Shown here piece by piece: positions 7,209-19,287 of a stretch of 26,799 nt of DNA. Origin of the DNA: Acidimicrobiales bacterium (GTDB lineage Bacteria; Actinomycetota; Acidimicrobiia; Acidimicrobiales; Palsa-688); contig DATKHZ010000234.1 in assembly GCA_035509995.1 (NCBI GenBank), forward strand, positions 1-26,799, given 5' to 3'. Numbering within the stretch: position 1 is the stretch's first letter; every line of letters starts with the position of its first letter. The notes under the pieces are model-generated. The model did no database searches, was not told where the DNA came from, and saw only the letters and a program-made list of their open reading frames with translations. A program made the position numbers and the translations under genes.

Positions 7209-8258
7209 TTGCCCGCGGTTGCCCACTGCCTCCCTTCGTCCTCCGTCCCCGCTCGGGCCACCAAGCGTTCACGTCCTGGTCTGGGCACTGGTGCCGCCCT
7301 GGTTGTCGGGATCCTGGCCAGCACCGGCTTGGGTACTTCGCCAGCAGCAGCCGTGACAACCTCAGCATCGCTCAGTGCCGGCGGATCTGCACCCGGTACG
7401 ATCTTCGTGGCAAATGGGGGTGCGGCCCAAAACGGCACAGGCCCAGGCTCTGTCACCTTGTACCGGCCCGGCGCGACCGGCGACGCACGCCCGGAAACAA
7501 TAATCACCGAGGGGATAGATGAACCCGGTGGCCTCACCTTTGATGCTTCGGGAGATCTTTGGGTGGGCCAACAGGTGGGCAACATCGTCGAGTACAGCAG
7601 GGCCGAGCTCGCTAAGGCGTCCCCGGTCCCGACCCGGAGCCTCTCCGAGGTAGGGGGCGGTCTCGCCTTTGACTCCTCGGGGAACCTATGGGTGGCGACC
7701 GCGTCGTCAGAGGTTGTCGAGTTCACCAAGGCCGAGATAGCCAGGTCGGGCTCCCCACTTCCCGTGCGCACTCTTTTCGACGACTGCAGCGTGGGTTCCG
7801 ACGCCCATGGGGACGTGTGGGAGGGCAGCCAGTTTGACACCGTGGCCGAGTTCACCAAGGCACAGCTAGCCAAGTCGGGCTCAGCGTCCCCCGCGGTGGT
7901 GGTCACCTCGACCGACCTGAACGGTCCCTGCAGGCCCGCCTTCGACGGCTCCGGTGACCTGTGGGCCGGGAACTACAACTCCAACACGGTGGTCGAGTTC
8001 ACCAAGGCGGAACTAGCCAAGTCGGGCTCGCCGGCCCCAAAGGTCGTCATTTCCTCCTCGAGCTACGCCGCCCCGGGCGACGTGGCTGTCAGCTCCTCAG
8101 GCGACTTGTGGGTCCCCTACTTCGGCGACGCAGGCGGGGCGGTGGCCGAGTTCACCAAGGTACAACTTGCCAGGTCGGGCTCGCCGAAGCCCGCTGTGAC
8201 GATCGCAGGCCCGGACACCGGGCTGAACAACCCTTGGGCGGTCGCCATCGAACCCTAG
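7209..8258 (+). CDS. Secreted six-bladed beta-propeller (NHL/Vgb-like repeats), paralog 1
   Basis: Signal peptide ending SPAAA. Five repeats of (A/T)FDxSGDLW...VxEFTKAxLAxSGSPxP, plus a terminal PWAVAIEP that could close the ring with the N-terminal TIFVAN strand. Confidence 0.88.
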   Translation: MPAVAHCLPSSSVPARATKRSRPGLGTGAALVVGILASTGLGTSPAAAVTTSASLSAGGSAPGTIFVANGGAAQNGTGPGSVTLYRPGATGDARPETIITEGIDEPGGLTFDASGDLWVGQQVGNIVEYSRAELAKASPVPTRSLSEVGGGLAFDSSGNLWVATASSEVVEFTKAEIARSGSPLPVRTLFDDCSVGSDAHGDVWEGSQFDTVAEFTKAQLAKSGSASPAVVVTSTDLNGPCRPAFDGSGDLWAGNYNSNTVVEFTKAELAKSGSPAPKVVISSSSYAAPGDVAVSSSGDLWVPYFGDAGGAVAEFTKVQLARSGSPKPAVTIAGPDTGLNNPWAVAIEP

Positions 8259-9198: not shown

Positions 9199-9777
9199 TC
9201 ACCCTCCTGACCCGCTGTACGGGAGCCCGCTCGGGACGAGCTTTTGGCAGATCTTTTGTGCCTGGGTGAACTGCGTCGAGTGGGTGTCGATGCTGGAAGG
9301 GAGGCGCAAGTTGACACTGCCCTCGGAGAAAGTCGGGTCGGGGAAGTTGATGATGCCGTGTGAGCGCATGCAGGTAGCCGTTTTGAGGTAGTCCTGCTGT
9401 TGCTGGGCGGTGACGGGTTGGACTGGCCGGCCACTCAGCGAGCCTCCGGGGGGGAGCAGGTGCCTGCAAACGTTCTGGGCCGCCTCGGCCTGCGAATTGC
9501 TGACCGCGTCGAACGCGCGGATGACCGCGTCCTTAGGGATCCCTCCGTTGCCGACAGGGTCGGGGAAGTTGGTGATGCCGTGTGAGCGCATGCAGGAGGT
9601 ATACGCCAAGAGCGCCGTTGCTTGGGTACCGCCGCCGGACGAGGAGCTGGGGGTGGTGGTTGTCGAAGCCGTGGCCACCCCCGTTTTCGAAGGGCCGCCT
9701 CCACAAGCCGCAAGGCTGGTACCAGATAACACACCGATAGCGAGCACAGAGGTGACCGGCAGCCATGAACGCTTCAT
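9199..9777 (-). CDS. Lipoprotein with two CMRSHGxxNFPDP repeats
   Basis: Lipobox LAAC (Cys25) and a Thr/Ser/Gly linker. Each repeat carries a second Cys (NVCRHLLP, KICQKLVP). Confidence 0.88.
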   Translation of the reverse strand: MKRSWLPVTSVLAIGVLSGTSLAACGGGPSKTGVATASTTTTPSSSSGGGTQATALLAYTSCMRSHGITNFPDPVGNGGIPKDAVIRAFDAVSNSQAEAAQNVCRHLLPPGGSLSGRPVQPVTAQQQQDYLKTATCMRSHGIINFPDPTFSEGSVNLRLPSSIDTHSTQFTQAQKICQKLVPSGLPYSGSGG

Positions 9778-10225: not shown

Positions 10226-13200
10226 TCAGGCATAACCGAGGTCGCGCGCCAGCTGCACCGCATCCGCCAGCAGGTGGCCCGCCCGGTCTGGGTCGGCGGC
10301 GTCCCAGGCCTCACACGCCGCCAGCACTGCCGTCTCGAGCTCGTCGGGCAAGCGCGCTAACGACGGGTCGAGCAAGCGCCGAGCGGCGGCGATTGCTTGT
10401 TCGTTTTGCCCCGTGCCCAGGTACGCGCCGGCCAGCGGCCAAAGAGCCAGGCAGTAGGGGTAGAACCCCGGGTGCGGGTGCCAGAGCTTGAGCGCCTCAG
10501 TACCGAGCGTGAGCGCTTCTCCAAACTGATCGTCGCGCCAGGCGACCCAGGCCTGCAGAGCCGTCGCCGCGGCCAGATGGTACGGGACACCCCTTGCCGC
10601 GGCCCGCGCCTCGGGTAGGAGTTCTCGCACAGCTTCGACGTCGCCGCAGCGGAACGCCGTGATCGCCAGCTCTCCCAGCAGCGCCCCGCGCGCCCCGGGA
10701 GAGCCGGCCCGCTCCGCGCTCGCCAGCCCCCGCTCGTGGGCCCCCCGGGCTTCGGAGAGATCTCCATGCCAGGTAAGGGCCCAACCGAGGTAGCACGCGT
10801 TAGAAGCCTGGTATCGCTCGGGGCGCAGGAACCATAGCGTCGTCGGCGCCGGCGCCCAGGCCGCGTCTACGGTCCGTCGCAACTCTTCGAGGATTTGCTC
10901 GTCCACCCGGTAGCGCCGCTCATGCAGGTGCTGGGTCGCCAGCGCTGCAGAGAACTCGCAGGCGACCGCTCCCCTACCTCTCGCTTCCGCCAGCGGGCGA
11001 GCGCTCTCGATCAGGGCGGCGGAGCGATCGAGCTCGCCGCGTTGAGAGTAAATGCAATACTTTGGACCGACCTGCAGGACCACCCAGAGCTCAACCCACT
11101 CCTGGTCGTCGTCCAGCCCCGGTACCCCGATCAGCTCCTCGGCGGCGGCAAAGGCGGCCAGTGCGGCGTCGAAATGGAACTGTTGGAACTCGATCCATCC
11201 CAGCATGAACTGCAACCGTCCGGCCTGTAGAACATCCTCAGGCCGGGCGATGGCTAACCCAGCGAGGGCCGCCGACCGCGCTTCTTCGAAACGGTCGATC
11301 AACAGGAACAGGTCAGCGAGCTTCTCGCAGATCCTGGCCACGGTCACCCGTCGCTCCGACGCGGCCGCCGGCGGGACCCCACCGTTCGCGGCACGGTCCG
11401 CGTTGATGACCGCGAGCGCCTGCCGGTACGAAGCGATGGCCTCCTCGTGGGCGAAGATCTGGTCGGCGTGATCTCCGGCCAGCTCCAGGTAATGGACGGC
11501 GCGGTCGTCCTCGCCCGCAGCCGCGAAGTGACGGCCGAGGACGGCCGCCGTCTCCTCGAGACGGCCGGTGGCGCTTGCCTCAAGGTGCCAGGCGGCGCGC
11601 CGGTGCAGCTGGCGGCGCTGGGAGCGCAGCAGGCCGTGATAGGTCGCCTCCCGGATCAGGGCGTGGCGGAAGCGGTACAAGGCTTCATGCTGGTTGCCGG
11701 CCTCAGTCAGAAGGGCGCCCGAAACGAGCTCGGAGAGGGCGGCGTCGAGCCCCTCATCCAGTTCGCAGACCGCGCCTATGGCGGAGCGCTCAGCCTCATC
11801 GCCTAGCACCGATGCAGCCACGATCGCCTCCCGCGCGGCCGGGCTGAGCCGGTCGGTACGAGAGCGAATGAGCCGCTCGAGCGCCTCGGGGACCCGAGCG
11901 GTATCACCAAGCCCGAGCCGCCAGCCGGCGCCGTCGCGCTCAAGGGCGCCTGTGTCGAGCATGGATGCGAGCCGCTCCTCCAAGAACAGCGGGTTGCCGT
12001 CGCCTCCCTGACAAACCGCCCGGAGTACCTCCTCAGCCGCAGTGCCGCCAAGGAGCGAGCGCGCCAGGGCCCGCTCAGCGCCTTCTTCCAGGGGCACGAG
12101 CTGCAACACCCGGAAAGCCCGGGCTGGGTCAGCGGCAAGCGCCGCCTGCAGTTCGCCGACCCCCGGGTCGGGCTCTGGCCGGCGGGTCACCAACACCAGC
12201 AAAGGGCCGGAGACGGCGAGCGTGGCCAGTTCACCGGTTAGCCGGAGCGACGTGGGGTCGGACCAGTGCAGGTCCTCGAGGGCGAGCACGGTCGGGCCGT
12301 GCTCTACTAGACGAGCTAGCACCGACCGCATAGCCAAGAACGTCATGTGCTGGAGCTCTGCCGGTCCCATCGGCTCCAGGCGCGCCCTACCTGCCCCTGC
12401 TGGCAAACCCAACATCCGCGCCAGCAAAGCGACGGGCTCTTTGTCGTTCCCCAAGACGGCTCGCATCGCCGTATCGAGCGCGGAGCGGAGGGCCGCCTCG
12501 CCTGCCTCCAGCGGTGCCCCGATGAAGCGCGACAAGAGCTGCTGGTAGGCCCCGTAGGGGGTGGACGAGGCGTAGGAAGCACAGCGGCCCTCGAGCCAGA
12601 GCGGTAAGCGCCCTGATGCCGCCCCCACCCAGCCCATGAAGTAATTGCGGCACTCGGCTACGAGGCGCGTTTTACCCAGCCCGGGCTCACCGACGACGAC
12701 TACGGCGCCCCCACGGCCCGACACGGTGGCCCGCACCGCCTCCGTGAGCACTGCTAGCTCCGCGTCCCGTCCGACCAGAGGTGCCTTGGCCGCCAGGCGG
12801 TGACGGCCCGCCTCCGCGACCGAGTGCACCCGCGGCTGTACGAGGTAAGTAGCGGGTAGCTGCTCGGTTCCCGGGCTGACGGGCACGTCGAGACTAGGGC
12901 CCCACTCGAAAATCCCCTCCGTGGCGGCCCGTGTGGCCGCGCCCACCAGCACCGAGCTGGGTTGCGCGGCCGCCTGAAGGGCTGCGGCCGCGCCAACGAC
13001 CCCACCGACCGCCTGGTAGCCGGCCCCGTCGCCGCCGCCCGCCGGCCCTACCACGGCTACACCCGTCTCGACCCCGATCCGTACCGACAGCGCGACCCCC
13101 GGCCCGGCCCTCCCGGCCTTGAGAGGGCCGAGGCCGTCAAGTCCCCGCGCACTGCCGACCGCAGTTACCATGCGCAATGCGACGCGCAGGGCCCGCTCGG

Positions 13201-14293
13201 GGTCGTCTTCGTGCGACTGAGGGGCGCCGAAGAGCACGGTCATGCTTGACCCCGAGATCGACGCCACGGTGCCCCCGAGTGCCTCTACCTCACTGATCGC
13301 TTGGGCGAGGCCGACGCCGATGATCTCACGCACGTCTTCGGGGTCAGCCTGGATGCCGAGGCCGACCGGGGAAAGCTCGACGACAGCGACGCTCAGTAGC
13401 CTGCGTTCCTCTCCGCGGTGGGCGGTCGGGGCTCCTTGGCCAGCCGCCGGGGCCGGGCGGCCGGGCGAGCCTGCATAGTCCACACTGGCCCGCAGCTCCT
13501 CGAGCGCCGGCGAGGATTTCAACCCGAGGCGGCCGAGCGCGGCAGCACAGCGCTCGTAGACGGCGAGCGCTTGGGGGCGGCGGTTGTGCGCGGCATGCAG
13601 CCGCATGAGCGATGAGGCGGCCTCCTCGCAGGTCGGGTCAGCCTCTAAGCAGGCCTGCCAGGCCTGCTGGACCTCCTCGGGACGGGCGCGGCCGACGCCG
13701 CGAGCGCGGTCGCGGGCCAGCTGCAGGCGGGCCTCCTGGCGCAGGTCCGCGAGACGACCGCGCACCCGGTCGGCCCATTCGGCGACCGGTTCGTCCTCGA
13801 GCGGGACTCCGCCGCTCGAGAGCGCTTCGACTAACGCACAGTCTCGCGACTGGCCCGGCGAGGACCTCAACGCAGCCCTGAGCGCCTGCTCGTGGGCGTC
13901 GAGGTCCACGTCGAGGGCGATGTCGGCCGCCGCCCAGATACAGCTGTGGTCGGCGCAGAGCAACCCTGCCGCCGGCGGGCCGAGCCGGCCGAGCACCGAG
14001 CGCGCCATCGACAGCGCCTTCCACAGCGCGTTCGTCGCCGCTTCTGCCCTCAGCGCCGGGAACAGGGCGTCGCAGGCGGCGTCCCGGCTGATGCGGCGCC
14101 CGGGGCTCACGAGCACGAGCTGGCACAGCCGCCGGGCGCTCGGCCGGGGCCACGTGGCCGTGCTGAGCTCTCCGGCCGCGACGGCGAAGCGCCCGAGCAG
14201 GCGGACATCGACGACGGGAGGGTTATCACCCTGTTCGGTCCGAGAGGCGGGCACCGTCACTATTGTCTCACCCGCCAGTTGAGGTGTCCCCAC
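10226..14293 (-). CDS. SARP/AfsR-type wHTH + BTAD + degenerate class III cyclase + STAND AAA ATPase + TPR-like repeats (1355 aa)
   Basis: VRLLGRF...SARRL wHTH; BTAD (DPTCEEA...LMRL...ALAVYERC); cyclase-like HEDDPERALRVAL; Walker A GEPGLGKT; Walker B LALEDLHWSD; LYRFRHALIREATY; Ala-rich helical repeats to the C-terminus. The exact start is uncertain. Confidence 0.92.
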   Translation of the reverse strand: MGTPQLAGETIVTVPASRTEQGDNPPVVDVRLLGRFAVAAGELSTATWPRPSARRLCQLVLVSPGRRISRDAACDALFPALRAEAATNALWKALSMARSVLGRLGPPAAGLLCADHSCIWAAADIALDVDLDAHEQALRAALRSSPGQSRDCALVEALSSGGVPLEDEPVAEWADRVRGRLADLRQEARLQLARDRARGVGRARPEEVQQAWQACLEADPTCEEAASSLMRLHAAHNRRPQALAVYERCAAALGRLGLKSSPALEELRASVDYAGSPGRPAPAAGQGAPTAHRGEERRLLSVAVVELSPVGLGIQADPEDVREIIGVGLAQAISEVEALGGTVASISGSSMTVLFGAPQSHEDDPERALRVALRMVTAVGSARGLDGLGPLKAGRAGPGVALSVRIGVETGVAVVGPAGGGDGAGYQAVGGVVGAAAALQAAAQPSSVLVGAATRAATEGIFEWGPSLDVPVSPGTEQLPATYLVQPRVHSVAEAGRHRLAAKAPLVGRDAELAVLTEAVRATVSGRGGAVVVVGEPGLGKTRLVAECRNYFMGWVGAASGRLPLWLEGRCASYASSTPYGAYQQLLSRFIGAPLEAGEAALRSALDTAMRAVLGNDKEPVALLARMLGLPAGAGRARLEPMGPAELQHMTFLAMRSVLARLVEHGPTVLALEDLHWSDPTSLRLTGELATLAVSGPLLVLVTRRPEPDPGVGELQAALAADPARAFRVLQLVPLEEGAERALARSLLGGTAAEEVLRAVCQGGDGNPLFLEERLASMLDTGALERDGAGWRLGLGDTARVPEALERLIRSRTDRLSPAAREAIVAASVLGDEAERSAIGAVCELDEGLDAALSELVSGALLTEAGNQHEALYRFRHALIREATYHGLLRSQRRQLHRRAAWHLEASATGRLEETAAVLGRHFAAAGEDDRAVHYLELAGDHADQIFAHEEAIASYRQALAVINADRAANGGVPPAAASERRVTVARICEKLADLFLLIDRFEEARSAALAGLAIARPEDVLQAGRLQFMLGWIEFQQFHFDAALAAFAAAEELIGVPGLDDDQEWVELWVVLQVGPKYCIYSQRGELDRSAALIESARPLAEARGRGAVACEFSAALATQHLHERRYRVDEQILEELRRTVDAAWAPAPTTLWFLRPERYQASNACYLGWALTWHGDLSEARGAHERGLASAERAGSPGARGALLGELAITAFRCGDVEAVRELLPEARAAARGVPYHLAAATALQAWVAWRDDQFGEALTLGTEALKLWHPHPGFYPYCLALWPLAGAYLGTGQNEQAIAAARRLLDPSLARLPDELETAVLAACEAWDAADPDRAGHLLADAVQLARDLGYA

Positions 14294-14294
14294 C

Positions 14295-14618
14295 TCAGGA
14301 CCACGCGGCGGCGCCGCCCTCGGCTAGGCCGCTGAGGCGAGACGTCGCTGCGGCCCGGGCGGCTCGCTCGGAATAGGCAATCGCCGTCGCGTTCGTGGGC
14401 GGCGTGCCATCGACCTCGGCGTTGTAGGCGGCGGCGCCGCCCCCGGCTAGGCCGCTGAGGCGAGATGTCGCTCCCCCCGAGCGGACGCTGACCGCGACTG
14501 CGGGCCCTGCCGAGTGGTGCTGCGCCGCCACGGCGGGCCCTCCGTAGACCGTGGTGAGCGGGACGGACATTACGAGCGCGGTGGTGGCCACCGCGACGGT
14601 GAGCCTTCTGGTGTTCAT
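14295..14618 (-). CDS. Small secreted protein (107 aa) with a duplicated 17-aa core
   Basis: AGGAGG Shine-Dalgarno; signal peptide MNTRRLTVAVATTALVMSVPLTTVYGGPAVA; repeats GATSRLSGLAGGGAAAY and AATSRLSGLAEGGAAAW. The stop lies 1 nt before the GTG of the STAND gene. Confidence 0.78.
   Translation of the reverse strand: MNTRRLTVAVATTALVMSVPLTTVYGGPAVAAQHHSAGPAVAVSVRSGGATSRLSGLAGGGAAAYNAEVDGTPPTNATAIAYSERAARAAATSRLSGLAEGGAAAWS
14305..14472. repeat. 45-bp direct repeat, two copies 123 bp apart
   Basis: 14305-14349 and 14428-14472 match at 43 of 45 positions and are in frame within the small ORF. Confidence 0.95.
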
Positions 14619-14680
14619 GCCGGTTCTCCTCCTGTTGGGCCGGCGGATGGTCGCCGGTGCACTCAGACTGGATCGGTCGA

Positions 14681-14697
14681 CTTCCCAAAACCTTCCC
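14681..14697 (-). promoter_or_regulatory. Direct repeats with 11-bp period (possible SARP/wHTH site)
   Basis: CTTCCC at 14681 and 14692 (GGGAAGGTTTTGGGAAG on the minus strand), followed 10 nt later by CAGTCT, upstream of the peptide-STAND operon. Confidence 0.35.
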
Positions 14698-15254: not shown

Positions 15255-15300
15255 CAATTAATACCTCCAATCCAAACAATTAATACCCCTCAATCCAATA
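15255..15300. repeat. AT-rich tandem repeat with about 22-bp period
   Basis: CAATTAATACCTCCAATCCAAA followed by CAATTAATACCCCTCAATCCAATA. Confidence 0.85.
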
Positions 15301-15393: not shown

Positions 15394-16422
15394 ATGAGAT
15401 CTTTTGCCGTACTCTCCAGCCTGGTCGGCTGTGCCGCGCTAATGGGCGGCGTTTTGCCCAGCGGCGGACTGAGCGATCCCTCGGCTGCGGCTTCGCTCGC
15501 ATCGATCGAGCGAAGCGCTGCCGTTCTCGCTCCGGGCACCATCTTTGTCGCTAATGCTAGCGCAGGCTTTGAAGGCGGACTGGGTACGGGGAACGGCTCG
15601 GTGACCGCCTACCGCCCGACCGCCCGCGGTGACGAACGCCCGCTACTCGTGCTTACCAAAGGGATCCTGGACCCCACCGGTCTCATCTTCGACTCCTCAG
15701 GCGACCTTTGGGTTGGCAACAACAGCAACAGCAACAATGTGGTCGAGTACAGCAAAGCTGAGCTAATTGCGGCTTCTCCTTCCCCCACTGTTACGATGTC
15801 GGAGAGCGGGGGCGGCGCGATGGGCCTCGCCTTTGATTCCTCGGGCGACCTTTGGATAACTAAAACCAATTTCACGGCGGTCGAGCTCACCAAAGCGCAG
15901 TTGGCTGAGTCGGGTTCCCCAGTTCCCGAAGTGACTATCACCAATACCAATCAGTGCAGCGTCGCATTCGACTCGTTCGGCAACATGTGGGAGGGCGGCT
16001 TCGATACTGTCGTACACGAATTCACACCGACCCAGCTGGCCGCGTCTGGATCTCCGACCCCACTTGTCACAGTGTCCTCGGACAGCCTAAACATGCCCTG
16101 TCAGCCGACTTTTGACTCGGCAGGCGACATGTGGGCCGCCAACTACCTGGGGAACACTGTCGTCGAGTTTACAAAAGCTCAGCTCGCCAAGTCCGGGTCG
16201 CCGACTGCCCGGGTCACCATCAGCTCTGACTATCTCGCTAACCCAGGTGACGTCGCCTTCGATCCCGGAGGTGACCTCTGGGTGCCTAGTGCGCAAGACG
16301 AGGCCGTGGTGGAGTTCACGAAGGCGCAGTTGGCGAGGTCGGGCACTCCTATGCCAGCAAGGGCCCTCTATGGGCGGTCCACCGGCCTGAGCTGGCCTTG
16401 GGCTCTCGCCGTGGAGCCATAG
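15394..16422 (+). CDS. Secreted six-bladed beta-propeller (NHL/Vgb-like repeats), paralog 2
   Basis: Colinear with 7209..8258 (PGTIFVAN, FDSSGDLW, EFTKAQLAKSGSP, PGDVA, PWALAVEP); signal peptide; AAAGGA Shine-Dalgarno. Confidence 0.88.
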   Translation: MRSFAVLSSLVGCAALMGGVLPSGGLSDPSAAASLASIERSAAVLAPGTIFVANASAGFEGGLGTGNGSVTAYRPTARGDERPLLVLTKGILDPTGLIFDSSGDLWVGNNSNSNNVVEYSKAELIAASPSPTVTMSESGGGAMGLAFDSSGDLWITKTNFTAVELTKAQLAESGSPVPEVTITNTNQCSVAFDSFGNMWEGGFDTVVHEFTPTQLAASGSPTPLVTVSSDSLNMPCQPTFDSAGDMWAANYLGNTVVEFTKAQLAKSGSPTARVTISSDYLANPGDVAFDPGGDLWVPSAQDEAVVEFTKAQLARSGTPMPARALYGRSTGLSWPWALAVEP

Positions 16423-16530: not shown

Positions 16531-19287
16531 CTACCGACCGCCACCGGTCATATGTACGGTTGCGATCTGGGCGAGCTGGTGGCGGTCGGCAACACCGAGT
16601 TTGGCGAAAACACGTGTCAGGTGGCTTTTCACCGTGGGTGTGGAAACGAACAGCTGCCCGGCGATCTCGGCGTTGCTCAGGCGCTTGGCGACGAGGGAAA
16701 CGACCTGACGCTCAGTCCGGGTGAGGCTCCCCCAGCCCGAAACGGAGCGCCTGTGGCTGCCGCGTCCTCGGCGGGCATAGGCAACAGCTTCTGTGAGCGT
16801 GAGCGCCCGGCCCTCAGTGAAGGCCTGGTCGAAAGGCTCCTGTCCGAGGGCTGTCTGGGCAGCCGCGAGCACTGGGGCGAGCTCGTCCCGAGCCCGGGCC
16901 CAGCGGCGGTAGCCCGTGGCTTCCCGCTGGCACTCAGCGGCGCCGAGGAGCCGGGCTGCCTCGGCTGCGCGCCCGAGATCAGCACCGGTGATGGCCACCA
17001 GCTCGAGCAGGTCGATAGCCCAAATGACGTGCCCTGCGCCGGCCGCTTGTTCGAGGCCATCACAAGCCAGCTCGTGCGCTCGCAACCAGTCGCCATCGGC
17101 CCGGGCCAGGTGGGACTCAGCCCGCAGGACAGGCACCCCTTCGGGCTCAGGCCTTCTCGGTAACCGCCAGGTGCAAGCGTCGAGATGGCGTCGGGCGGAG
17201 CCCAGGTCGCCGCGGCGCAGCGCCACCTCGGCCAGCACGGCCCGGTTGTTCACGCACATGCGTCCGAGCCCGAACGCCTCCAACTTGGAACTCGCGCTCT
17301 CCAGGAGTTCATAACCGTGGTCGTCCTGGCCGAGAGAGACCTCGAGATGGCCGGAGCCCATATCGGCGCACGCCAGGTTGAAGGCGTCGTCGATCGACTC
17401 AGCCAAGGCCCGGGCCCGGGCGAACGCACCCGTCGCACCGGCATCGCCCAGGTACGTATAGGCCTCGCCGATGTGGCGTTCACCCCAGCAGACAAACCTG
17501 GGGGCCGATAGCTCAGTGCTCAGCCGCAATAGCTTTTCGGCTTCCTCCAACCCCCTCACCAAGCGACCGGAGCAAGTGGCGGCGATGGAACCAATGGTCC
17601 CCGTACTGACCAACCCCCATAGATAATCGACGTCGCGAACCGCGCGTTCTGATTCCTCGGCCAGACAGAGGGCTTCTTCAGGACGGCCAAGCCAAAGGTA
17701 AGCCCACGCTTTGTTGTGCAGGCCTAGGTCGGCCGTTTTGGGGAGCCCCGCCTTTAGGGCCATATCTATGGCTTCGTCAGCCGTCTTTAGCGCTTCGTCG
17801 GGCTGTGCCCAGGCCTGCAAGTTCGCAACCGCGTACAAGCCGCGAGCGGTCGCCCAGTCATACCCGGCCGACCGACCGAGTTCGGTCAGCTCCCATGCCA
17901 GGCGAAGCGAGGTCGGTGGGTCCGAGTTGCGCGTGCTGCGAAGAGCAAAGTACAAGAGGTCGGCCCGGCGCGAAGGGTCCAGCTCGGCCGCCAGCAGCCG
18001 CTCGCAGCGGGCCCAAGCCTCGGGCCAAAGCCGCAAACCGTCGAAGAAGGGCCACAGCGCTCCGAGCAGGTCGGCGCAGGCGTTGAACTGCTCGGACTGG
18101 ACGCTCCAGTCGAGGGCAGCGCGCAGGTTGTCCAGGTCGGGCTCCAGGACCGCCAGGGCGGCAGCGATCTCGCTGGTCAGACCCATCGGTTGCATGGATT
18201 GCGCAAGCGTGGTGAGGTACGCGAGGTGCCGGTCCCGGAACAAGGCAGTTGCGCCCTCGGGTTCCAGGGCGGTGCCCGCGTAGGCGCGCATGGTCTCGTG
18301 GAGCCCGAAGCGGTCGGCACCCGCGTCCGCCTGGACCAGGGACTTGTCCACCAGGGAGGTCAATAGCCCGAGGACTTGATCACGCTCTATTTCGCCACCG
18401 GCGCACACGGCCTCGGCGGCAGCTACCCCGAAACCGGAAGCGAACACCGAAAGACGCGCCAACAGAGCGCGCTCGTCCTCGCTGAGCAGGGCGCAGCTCC
18501 ATTCGATCGAGGCCAGGAGAGTTTTTTGCCGGGACGGCACAGCCCGCCCGTTGCCGACGAGCAAGTGGAACCGGTCTGAAAGACCAGCCGCGATGGCATG
18601 GACGCTCATCAACCTGGCCCGAGCCGCCGCCAGCTCCAGGGCTAAGGGGATGCCGTCGAGCCGCTCGCAGATCTCAGCTACGGCCGGTACGTCGGAGTTG
18701 GGCATGATAAAGCTCGGGCGAGCCCTTGTGGCTCTGTCGATGAAGAGCCTTCCCGCCTCCGAGCTCTCGAGCCAGTCTTCACCGCCGCGTTGGTCGTGGT
18801 CCGGCAGGTCGAGACCTCCCACGGGCACTATGGCTTCGCCTGCGACCCCCAAACGCTCGCGTGACGTCGCCAGTACCCATATCCGGGGGCAGCCGCGCAC
18901 CATGGCGTCCGCCAGCGACGCGCAGGCGTCGACTAGGTGCTCACAATTGTCCAGGATGACGAGCACGTCCCGCTCGGAAAGCCGGGAGACGAGCACCCCG
19001 ACCGGGTCCCGGCCGGGTGCCGCCTGCAAACCGAGGGTGCCGACGACAGCGCCAGGCACCAAACCGGGGTCGGAGATGCCCGACAGGTCCACGAAGAACA
19101 CCCCGTCGGTGCGGCGATCGGCCACGTCTCGCCCGATCTCAATGGCGAGGCGGGTCTTGCCGCACCCGCCCGGGCCGACCAAGCTGACCAGGCGGTCGGC
19201 TTGCAGCCGGTCGCGGACGGTGGCAATGGTGGCTTCGCGCCCGACGAAGCTCGTGAGCTGGCCTGGCAGGTTCCCTGGAACCTTCAT
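16531..19287 (-). CDS. STAND/NB-ARC-like ATPase with C-terminal LuxR HTH (918 aa)
   Basis: GNLPGQLTSFVGRE, Walker A GPGGCGKT, Walker B LVILDNCEHL, LDGIPLALELAAAR, TPR-like middle, LuxR HTH (LTRTERQV...SNAEIAGQLFVSTPTVKSHLTRVFAKLGV). Confidence 0.93.
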   Translation of the reverse strand: MKVPGNLPGQLTSFVGREATIATVRDRLQADRLVSLVGPGGCGKTRLAIEIGRDVADRRTDGVFFVDLSGISDPGLVPGAVVGTLGLQAAPGRDPVGVLVSRLSERDVLVILDNCEHLVDACASLADAMVRGCPRIWVLATSRERLGVAGEAIVPVGGLDLPDHDQRGGEDWLESSEAGRLFIDRATRARPSFIMPNSDVPAVAEICERLDGIPLALELAAARARLMSVHAIAAGLSDRFHLLVGNGRAVPSRQKTLLASIEWSCALLSEDERALLARLSVFASGFGVAAAEAVCAGGEIERDQVLGLLTSLVDKSLVQADAGADRFGLHETMRAYAGTALEPEGATALFRDRHLAYLTTLAQSMQPMGLTSEIAAALAVLEPDLDNLRAALDWSVQSEQFNACADLLGALWPFFDGLRLWPEAWARCERLLAAELDPSRRADLLYFALRSTRNSDPPTSLRLAWELTELGRSAGYDWATARGLYAVANLQAWAQPDEALKTADEAIDMALKAGLPKTADLGLHNKAWAYLWLGRPEEALCLAEESERAVRDVDYLWGLVSTGTIGSIAATCSGRLVRGLEEAEKLLRLSTELSAPRFVCWGERHIGEAYTYLGDAGATGAFARARALAESIDDAFNLACADMGSGHLEVSLGQDDHGYELLESASSKLEAFGLGRMCVNNRAVLAEVALRRGDLGSARRHLDACTWRLPRRPEPEGVPVLRAESHLARADGDWLRAHELACDGLEQAAGAGHVIWAIDLLELVAITGADLGRAAEAARLLGAAECQREATGYRRWARARDELAPVLAAAQTALGQEPFDQAFTEGRALTLTEAVAYARRGRGSHRRSVSGWGSLTRTERQVVSLVAKRLSNAEIAGQLFVSTPTVKSHLTRVFAKLGVADRHQLAQIATVHMTGGGR

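Follow-up and report, generated by a model that had tools for sequence, protein, structure and literature searches.

A 26,799-nt stretch of contig DATKHZ010000234.1 (hereafter the window), from an uncultured member of the Acidimicrobiales, carries on its minus strand a small gene, P0001, encoding a repeat peptide with a signal peptide, followed directly by a large gene, P0002, whose product joins a SARP module to a cyclase-homology domain (CHD), a STAND ATPase and TPR repeats. It is highly likely that the peptide, its promoter and the regulator form a conserved, probably autoregulated bicistronic cassette. As to function, the sequence comparisons below lead us to favour, at a probability of roughly 0.5, an AfsR/AfsS-like autoregulated unit in which the peptide would be secreted cargo, the output of the system, and the TPR repeats would sense another cue. 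The peptide looks more like the dedicated secreted product of the regulator than its signal. The elements of the cassette, all on the minus strand, are as follows.

14680–14697, SARP-type box with heptamer direct repeats GGGAAGG and GGGAAGT at an 11-bp period (promoter alignment)
14665–14670, −10-like hexamer CAGTCT (alignment of 13 loci; putative function)
14640–14657, hairpin in the 5′ untranslated region, CCGGCG, 6-nt loop, CGCCGG (covariation)
14626–14633, ribosome-binding site of P0001, AGGAGGAG (read off the sequence)
14295–14618, P0001, predicted exported repeat propeptide of 107 residues (translation of the open reading frame, ORF)
14526–14618, signal peptide of P0001, residues 1–31 (sequence reading)
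14424–14471, core 1 of P0001
14298–14348, core 2 of P0001
14261–14294, 34-nt spacer from the peptide stop to the conserved regulator start, with a conserved GGTGAGA motif (paralog alignment)
10226–14260, P0002, SARP-CHD-STAND-TPR regulator, 1344 residues from a conserved GTG
13469–14212, SARP module of P0002, winged helix and BTAD (Pfam BTAD above cut-off; EmbR alignment)
12914–13420, class III CHD of P0002, predicted to be catalytically dead (alignment to CyaC 1wc0)
12194–12781, AAA_16 STAND P-loop NTPase of P0002 (Pfam, E 1.1e-23)
10229–11476, C-terminal TPR superhelix of P0002, about 20 helices, presumed sensor (AlphaFold2 and Foldseek)

The peptide gene is preceded by a strong ribosome-binding site 7 nt ahead of its ATG, the GGAG core of which is kept in all aligned loci. 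The N-terminus of P0001 comprises a positively charged n-region (MNTRR), a hydrophobic h-region and the cleavage motif AVA↓A, and thus reads as a Sec-type signal peptide. The predicted mature part contains two cores, ATSRLSGLAGGGAAAY and ATSRLSGLAEGGAAAW(S), which conform to the pattern ATSRLSGLA(G/E)GGAAA(Y/W). The two 45-nt DNA copies (14305–14349 and 14428–14472) are 96% identical, 43 of 45 nucleotides being the same, and the ORF translation and repeat search therefore uphold the description of a 107-residue Sec-type protein with two near-identical cores given in the initial annotation of this DNA. P0001 is predicted to be disordered (Atlas model, pLDDT 0.36) and belongs to no family in Pfam or NCBIfam. 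Its look-alikes in the ESM Atlas, exclusively unnamed actinobacterial clusters with scores of 0.81–0.83, were set aside as shuffled sequences reached such scores too. The LPxGG element was also considered as a sortase LPXTG signal or a double-glycine leader, both of which were rejected on our own reasoning from residue positions and the absence of a membrane anchor. The cores might each adopt a strand-turn-strand arrangement (SRLSGL, PxGG, AALY), and self-assembly is hence conceivable.

A profile search of 5.8 billion proteins returned 83 clusters homologous to P0001, all unnamed and devoid of Pfam domains, while an exhaustive hidden Markov model search of 1.84 billion representatives found just 27 clusters of the family. 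These homologues, together with the pairing with a regulator at at least 14 other loci described below, show that the peptide family is real and not a chance ORF. There is a paralog of P0001 on another contig of the same metagenome-assembled genome (MAG), and relatives occur in four sister species; the genomes tallied in looking for such relatives included three unpublished ones (G021, G030 and G024), on which no claim depends. The family is present in 6 of the 21 species-representative genomes of the window's genus, at one to four copies each, and a sample of 400 genomes from elsewhere in the order contained no member; among species-representative genomes, this genus alone yielded members. 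All members share a signal peptide, a variable spacer and one to three copies of SRLSGL-xx-GG-A(A/G/S)x(Y/F/D/C/W)x, the last of which almost always stops exactly five residues past the GG, at the C-terminus of the protein. The variable positions of the core are the ‘xx' and the five-residue tail after the GG, the core being almost invariant among paralogs of one genome, and dN/dS between ortholog pairs of the peptide ranges from 0.19 to 0.73.

One subfamily of these peptides, which begin ‘MPRF' (L014:8834-9268(+) and L076/L077:6001-6444(+)), has neither a SARP box nor a SARP regulator, and AAA_16-GerE (LuxR-type STAND) regulators are encoded nearby. The internal cores of this subfamily run on as GG-ASDYNGPPP..H..KP and recall the tyrosine-sulfated RaxX/PSY peptides; the string DYPPPGANPKHDP is present in 10.1101/442517, which is offered as a lead only. 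An orphan peptide gene, P0079, lies directly after genes for ATP sulfurylase and APS kinase, which make 3′-phosphoadenosine 5′-phosphosulfate (region L079:4098-6402); this may be a coincidence or a link to sulfation.

The regulator P0002 displays the features of large AfsR-like SARPs, a winged helix with BTAD at the N-terminus and a NOD (STAND ATPase) with TPRs at the C-terminus, and on this basis probably belongs with them. Matches to BTAD, AAA_16 and MalT-like/TPR_12 lend weight to its prior description as a DNA-binding STAND protein ending in TPR-like repeats. The longest ORF (10226-14293(-), 1355 residues) begins 1 nt past the peptide stop, the gap originally reported. Alignment with 12 paralogous loci, in four of which the upstream frame is closed by stops, places the conserved start at GTG 14260 instead, so that the gap holds for the longest ORF, whereas 34 nt separate the conserved start from the peptide stop. 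The minus strand between the two genes showed no terminator-like site. The BTAD match scores 27.6 bits (cut-off 22.1), and the N-terminal profile of the P0002 family aligns across residues 11–253 of EmbR (2fez), equivalent to the whole SARP module, at a weak E-value of 0.0045. Trans_reg_C itself gave no match in P0002, and phmmer with the SARP region alone found nothing in the PDB, EmbR being reached by the family profile only. About 17 residues precede the SARP domain, and these are unlike the peptide core. The CHD matches Guanylate_cyc weakly. Compared with CyaC (1wc0), its metal-binding aspartates are replaced by Glu and Ser, the substrate lysine by Ser, and the transition-state asparagine and arginine by Gly and Ala, respectively; these replacements indicate a domain that is in all probability catalytically dead. 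The last 416 residues are modelled by AlphaFold2 as a confident TPR superhelix (pLDDT 88.6), the best Foldseek matches of which are peptide-binding TPRs such as LGN/Pins; the pheromone-bound Rap of phage phi3T is also matched (TMq 0.55). This modelled likeness to peptide-binding TPRs is generic, not diagnostic. The C-terminal TPR is the most divergent domain of the regulator, with a mean pairwise identity of 0.55, compared with about 0.70 for the SARP, CHD and NOD.

Searches with tblastn and exact-protein look-ups revealed a regulator homolog directly downstream of the peptide gene at at least 14 other loci (L013, L017-L020, L022, L023, L078, L080-L084 and contigs with P0046). L013 is the paralogous pair in the same genome, its regulator being 64% identical to P0002 over the full length. 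When 12 loci were compared all against all, nothing but the promoter, peptide and regulator proved to be shared, flanking genes differing at every locus; with the ortholog locus L078, the window is homologous over about 4.5 kb only (14745-10221). Small signal-peptide ORFs with repeats thus lie directly upstream of homologous regulators in this clade, the neighbourhood that the initial annotation had proposed to look for and whose absence it would have counted against a peptide–regulator pair, and the two genes are a conserved unit. The cassette also decays. Intact peptide genes accompany regulator remnants at L015, L016 and L021, regulators accompany truncated peptide remnants at L024 and L026-L028, L029 has a regulator without a peptide, and P0079 is a peptide without a regulator.

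The promoter of the peptide gene is ordered, 5′ to 3′, as two heptamers, nine nucleotides, the hexamer, the hairpin and the ribosome-binding site. The box in the window reads GGGAAGG-TTTT-GGGAAGT (14697-14680); its repeats are kept in 12 of 13 aligned promoters, with invariant GG, A and TTT columns. The CAGTCT hexamer begins 9 nt past the 3′ repeat and has A2 and T6 invariant across the 13 loci (NANNNT). The hairpin is modestly supported by covariation (77% of cells paired, compared with 15–34% in slid controls; both-side changes 10, compared with 3.6 in shuffles), and could be either an RNA stem or a palindromic operator. The box pattern GGSRARRTTTYGGSRAR has two exact matches in the 3.2-Mb genome, both upstream of its two peptide genes, and none in a reversed control. 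Five sister genomes hold nine box sites, of which six are at peptide genes or their remnants, two at genes for a 236-residue secreted protein, and one appears to be a chance match. The orphan peptide gene with no nearby regulator retains the box, while L014, from the peptide subfamily that is not beside a SARP regulator, does not have it. The repeat words vary with the clade of the regulator (GGGAAGG, GGGGAAG, GGCAAGG, GGTAACA), the 11-bp period being kept. In SARP-dependent promoters, including the AfsR-dependent promoter of afsS, 11-bp repeats overlap the −35 region and about 8 bp separate the 3′ repeat from a weak −10 (PMC10936776). The peptide promoter has this published geometry, in which the repeats follow an 11- or 22-bp period, and binding of the SARP is predicted accordingly. 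An extracytoplasmic function sigma factor promoter, the other reading given to GGGAAG...GTCT, was rejected on our own reasoning, as the spacer is 9–11 or 20–23 nt rather than 16–17.

In the mechanism we propose, a cue sensed by the STAND/TPR part would switch the regulator on, and the SARP, as a side-by-side dimer, would occupy the pair of 11-bp direct repeats standing in for a −35 element in the promoter of its own operon, and would recruit RNA polymerase. Transcription would yield first the disordered, Sec-exported repeat peptide and then the regulator, generating positive feedback. The peptide would be the dedicated secreted cargo of the cassette, acting outside the cell through its one to three conserved cores (SRLSGL-xx-GG plus five residues).

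The two box sites at genes for the 236-residue secreted protein, away from any peptide gene, are informative with respect to the role of the peptide. They precede the gene for that protein, with the same layout of box, hairpin and ribosome-binding site; its promoters keep the 11-bp period with other words, such as GGCAAGG and GGTAACA. This family (L086:6112-6819(-) and its relatives L089-L100) is secreted by prediction, beta-rich and present in 16 of the 21 genus genomes; it has no match in Pfam and no peptide-type repeats, and its AlphaFold2 model is of low confidence (pLDDT 38.9). In 21 of 33 cases a SARP-CHD-STAND paralog lies just downstream on the same strand. The regulator family is matched in 19 of the 21 genomes; a single genome can hold as many as 32 matches, fragments included. 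When the N-terminal 420 residues were used to build a tree, regulators linked to the peptide, among them those with peptide remnants and the orphan L029, formed one derived clade (Shimodaira–Hasegawa support, SH, 0.977) apart from those linked to the 236-residue protein. The signal-peptide region of the peptide weakly matches the N-terminus of a member of the 236-residue family (E 0.04). Twenty further regulator paralogs sampled for an upstream cargo revealed no single pattern, with L112 having a repeat box directly before the regulator. The simplest history suggested by these sequences is a general cassette, consisting of a box promoter, a secreted cargo and a SARP-STAND regulator, in one lineage of which the cargo was swapped for the repeat peptide. 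Separately, the genus-wide expansion of the regulator and its hypervariable C-terminal TPR form a pattern that resembles NLR repertoires.

Whether the peptide is matched to the TPR was assessed by comparing peptide similarity with the similarity of each regulator domain across 13 peptide-regulator pairs. The correlations (rho) were as follows.

Last core: SARP 0.50, CHD 0.24, NOD 0.09, middle −0.03, C-terminal TPR −0.15
Signal peptide: SARP 0.73, CHD 0.45, NOD 0.32, middle 0.27, C-terminal TPR −0.03

DNA identity between the window and L078 falls in steps along the cassette.

14745-13549, promoter, peptide and SARP: 87–94%
13548-11482, CHD and NOD: 72–77%
11481-10315, C-terminal TPR: 60–64%

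A near-identical peptide (83% amino-acid identity, dS 0.17) is paired with a C-terminal TPR that is only 54% identical. This stepwise mosaicism shows that promoter, peptide and DNA-binding module are inherited together, while sensors are swapped behind them, and the near-invariance of the core between paralogs of one genome argues against private channels. The initial annotation had inferred that the cores are sensed by the TPR and had suggested peptide/TPR co-variation as a check. That check is negative, the core tracking the SARP rather than the C-terminal TPR, and the inference finds no support in the mosaicism at L078, the invariant core or the presence of the 236-residue protein in the slot of the peptide. 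Its fallback, that the peptide is a regulated output, now fits better than a role as ligand. Given the limited number of loci and their relatedness, these comparisons are evidence against a specific match between peptide and TPR, not proof.

These data bear most directly on peptide autoinduction, an RRNPP-like scheme in which the peptide would be exported by Sec, cleaved and re-imported by an Opp-type transporter, whereupon its cores would bind the TPR of an NLR-like receptor and switch on the STAND and SARP. The genes are an adjacent operonic pair, the signal peptide is of the Sec type, and the one to three cores, the last at the exact C-terminus, are reminiscent of tandemly duplicated Phr propeptides (PMC11343458). 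The modelled superhelix resembles pheromone-bound Rap, the genome has 10 genes for SBP_bac_5 (Opp/Dpp-type) binding proteins, and a promoter with likely positive feedback is typical of autoinducers. In contrast, autoinduction does not readily explain the lack of peptide–TPR co-variation, the pairing of almost the same peptide with dissimilar TPRs, the near-invariant core or the globular 236-residue protein that takes the place of the peptide in sister cassettes. Orphan regulators and orphan peptides both exist, and a receptor of 1344 residues is far beyond the 250–500 residues of the RRNPP range (PMC10075063). Autoinduction is therefore considered unlikely. A variant, to which we give similarly little credence, is that the exported cores are diffusible signals that are re-imported and read by a conserved surface of the NLR-like SARP regulators, the variable TPR adding a second, private input. 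If true, Actinomycetota would possess a public peptide-pheromone network, open to cross-talk, in which a STAND ATPase serves as the receptor and paralogous sensors are numerous.

Several considerations weigh against viewing the peptide as cargo. Peptide-pheromone systems likewise have a last core fixed at the C-terminus, duplicated cores and close operonic linkage to a TPR protein (PMC10075063, PMC11343458). AfsS binds AfsR through its repeats (PMC10832544), and direct contact between peptide and regulator is thus conceivable here. It could be a conserved region of the regulator, and not the variable TPR, that reads the conserved core. The co-variation sample consists of 13 related loci, 11 of them with a C-terminal TPR and some from frameshifted long-read assemblies. 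Finally, the host is an uncultured MAG, and expression, export and DNA binding are all predictions.

The contact between AfsS and AfsR is at the heart of another explanation, in which the unexported precursor would act as an AfsS-like intracellular cofactor, binding the regulator through its repeats and tuning DNA binding, and export would remove the precursor in a secretion-coupled switch. Export that takes away a regulatory partner is the principle of FlgM-type partner switching. AfsS is small, contains two to five short repeats, adjoins AfsR, is transcribed from an AfsR-dependent promoter and binds AfsR via the repeats (PMC10832544, PMC10936776). The cassette likewise places a small repeat protein beside a large SARP, behind a repeat-box promoter, and the peptide co-segregates with the SARP module. 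What makes this explanation improbable is the canonical Sec signal peptide in all members of the peptide family, which AfsS does not have, and the secreted protein of sister cassettes, in which such repeats are absent. P0001 also has no detectable sequence similarity to AfsS, as it matches no Pfam or NCBIfam family.

Two further explanations, a multi-core precursor of a ribosomally synthesized and post-translationally modified peptide (RiPP), modified for instance on Tyr, and an amyloid-signalling (BASS/HET-s-like) partner of the NLR, are very improbable. The repeated cores, the variable spacer and the conserved Tyr/Phe/Trp two residues from the end would suit a RiPP, as would the weak and partial likeness of the regulator to a TOMM kinase/cyclase fusion protein (233 bits, cut-off 706), but the 12 loci have no modifying enzyme, protease or transporter in common next to the pair, and a Sec signal peptide is atypical of RiPP leaders. 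Similarly, two pseudo-repeats of about 20 residues beside an NLR-like gene recall HET-s/BASS layouts (10.1101/2020.01.06.895854), yet the defining feature of BASS, an NLR that bears the motif at its own N-terminus, is missing, and export would part the peptide from a cytoplasmic NLR. As judged from the sequences, both explanations fail their defining tests.

The surroundings of the cassette provide additional observations. Two paralogous NHL/six-bladed-propeller proteins with signal- or lipoprotein-type N-termini (7209-8258(+) and 15394-16422(+)), 56% identical, flank it in the window. Propellers as conserved partners, for example as peptide-modifying enzymes, were rejected, as they flank the pair in the window only and are absent at the other pair loci; the cassette may accordingly have inserted between tandem paralogs. 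About 100 nt upstream of the second propeller gene is an AT-rich direct repeat, CAATTAATACC(T/C)C, two copies of which lie 22 nt apart (15255-15289(+)); the chance expectation is 0.17 and the repeat may be an operator. At L078 a phage-type integrase gene (L078:13261-14220) follows the cassette, as does an HTH_17 gene on a second contig, which hints at mobility. STAND regulators are encoded beside both cassettes of the genome, an AAA_16/NB-ARC-like protein with GerE in the window (16531-19287(-)) and a cyclase-AAA_16-TPR protein at L013 (L013:4628-7084(-)), the two being 35% identical over about 500 residues. Beyond the conserved cassette, 450 nt downstream of the regulator gene, lies the gene for a 192-residue lipoprotein (9199-9777(-)), which has an LAAC lipobox and no Pfam match.

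Large SARPs, AfsR among them, have come to be seen as bacterial NLR-like switches, with the targets of their sensors and the roles of their small partners largely open. The genus described here is a natural experiment in this respect, comprising dozens of paralogous SARP-STAND cassettes, each with a secreted cargo and a recognisable repeat box. Clear recombination breakpoints part the output module (promoter, cargo and SARP) from the sensor module (TPR), a modularity that makes the cassettes attractive for dissecting the rewiring of STAND sensors. In the repeat-peptide family, an uncultured soil lineage offers a new candidate extracellular peptide. Should autoinduction, the minority explanation, be true, it would represent the first case in Actinomycetota of an NLR-like receptor that reads a genetically encoded peptide pheromone.

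Among known systems, BASS/HET-s-like pairs also have a short repeated motif at the C-terminus of a small partner beside a STAND/TPR gene, and an expanded STAND family with a variable repeat sensor. In the cassette, by contrast, the motif is not in the N-terminus of the regulator, the partner would be exported and the effector is a DNA-binding domain. The TOMM kinase/cyclase fusion family TIGR03903 shares with P0002 the order cyclase-homology, AAA_16 and helical repeats (partial match, residues 272–962), but the score is far below the cut-off of 705.75, the cyclase is dead, the N-terminus carries a SARP output, and there is neither a kinase nor a C-terminal LuxR domain; no cyclodehydratase was conserved near the cassette in the 12-locus comparison. 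The central layout of P0002 is one that we take to be akin to that of mycobacterial Rv0386-type cyclase-ATPase-TPR regulators. RRNPP(A) systems (Rap-Phr, PlcR-PapR and AimR-AimP) likewise consist of a small Sec-exported propeptide adjacent to a cytoplasmic TPR protein, the active region of the propeptide being C-terminal and, in some, the cores tandemly duplicated (PMC11343458, PMC10075063). Their receptors are essentially TPRs with or without a helix-turn-helix (PMC10075063), whereas P0002 includes a SARP, a STAND ATPase and a pseudo-cyclase. These systems are found in Bacillota, the cassette in Actinomycetota; in the cassette, no co-variation of peptide and TPR was seen across the 13 pairs, and the core hardly differs between paralogs.

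A close functional analogue is AfsR-AfsS of Streptomyces, which was overlooked when the pair was first said to correspond to no described system. Both comprise a large SARP (winged helix and BTAD) fused to a STAND NTPase and TPRs, an adjacent small protein with short repeats, and a promoter of the small gene in which two 11-bp direct repeats replace the −35 element near a weak −10 (PMC10936776, PMC10832544). An AfsS-type partner is a small cytoplasmic repeat protein that binds the SARP; P0001 has repeats, and also a Sec signal peptide. The systems differ in that the small gene here is upstream in the same operon rather than downstream, and in that the repeats of its product are of about 16–20 residues, the last of them C-terminal. 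An additional, dead cyclase domain is present in the regulator, which has AAA_16 in place of NB-ARC, and the family is confined to one Acidimicrobiales genus, in which it is highly multiplied. The domain vocabulary and the SARP logic are thus already known, while the exported repeat-peptide family, the pseudo-cyclase insertion, the order of the operon, the expansion within one genus and the modular shuffling of sensors are new here.

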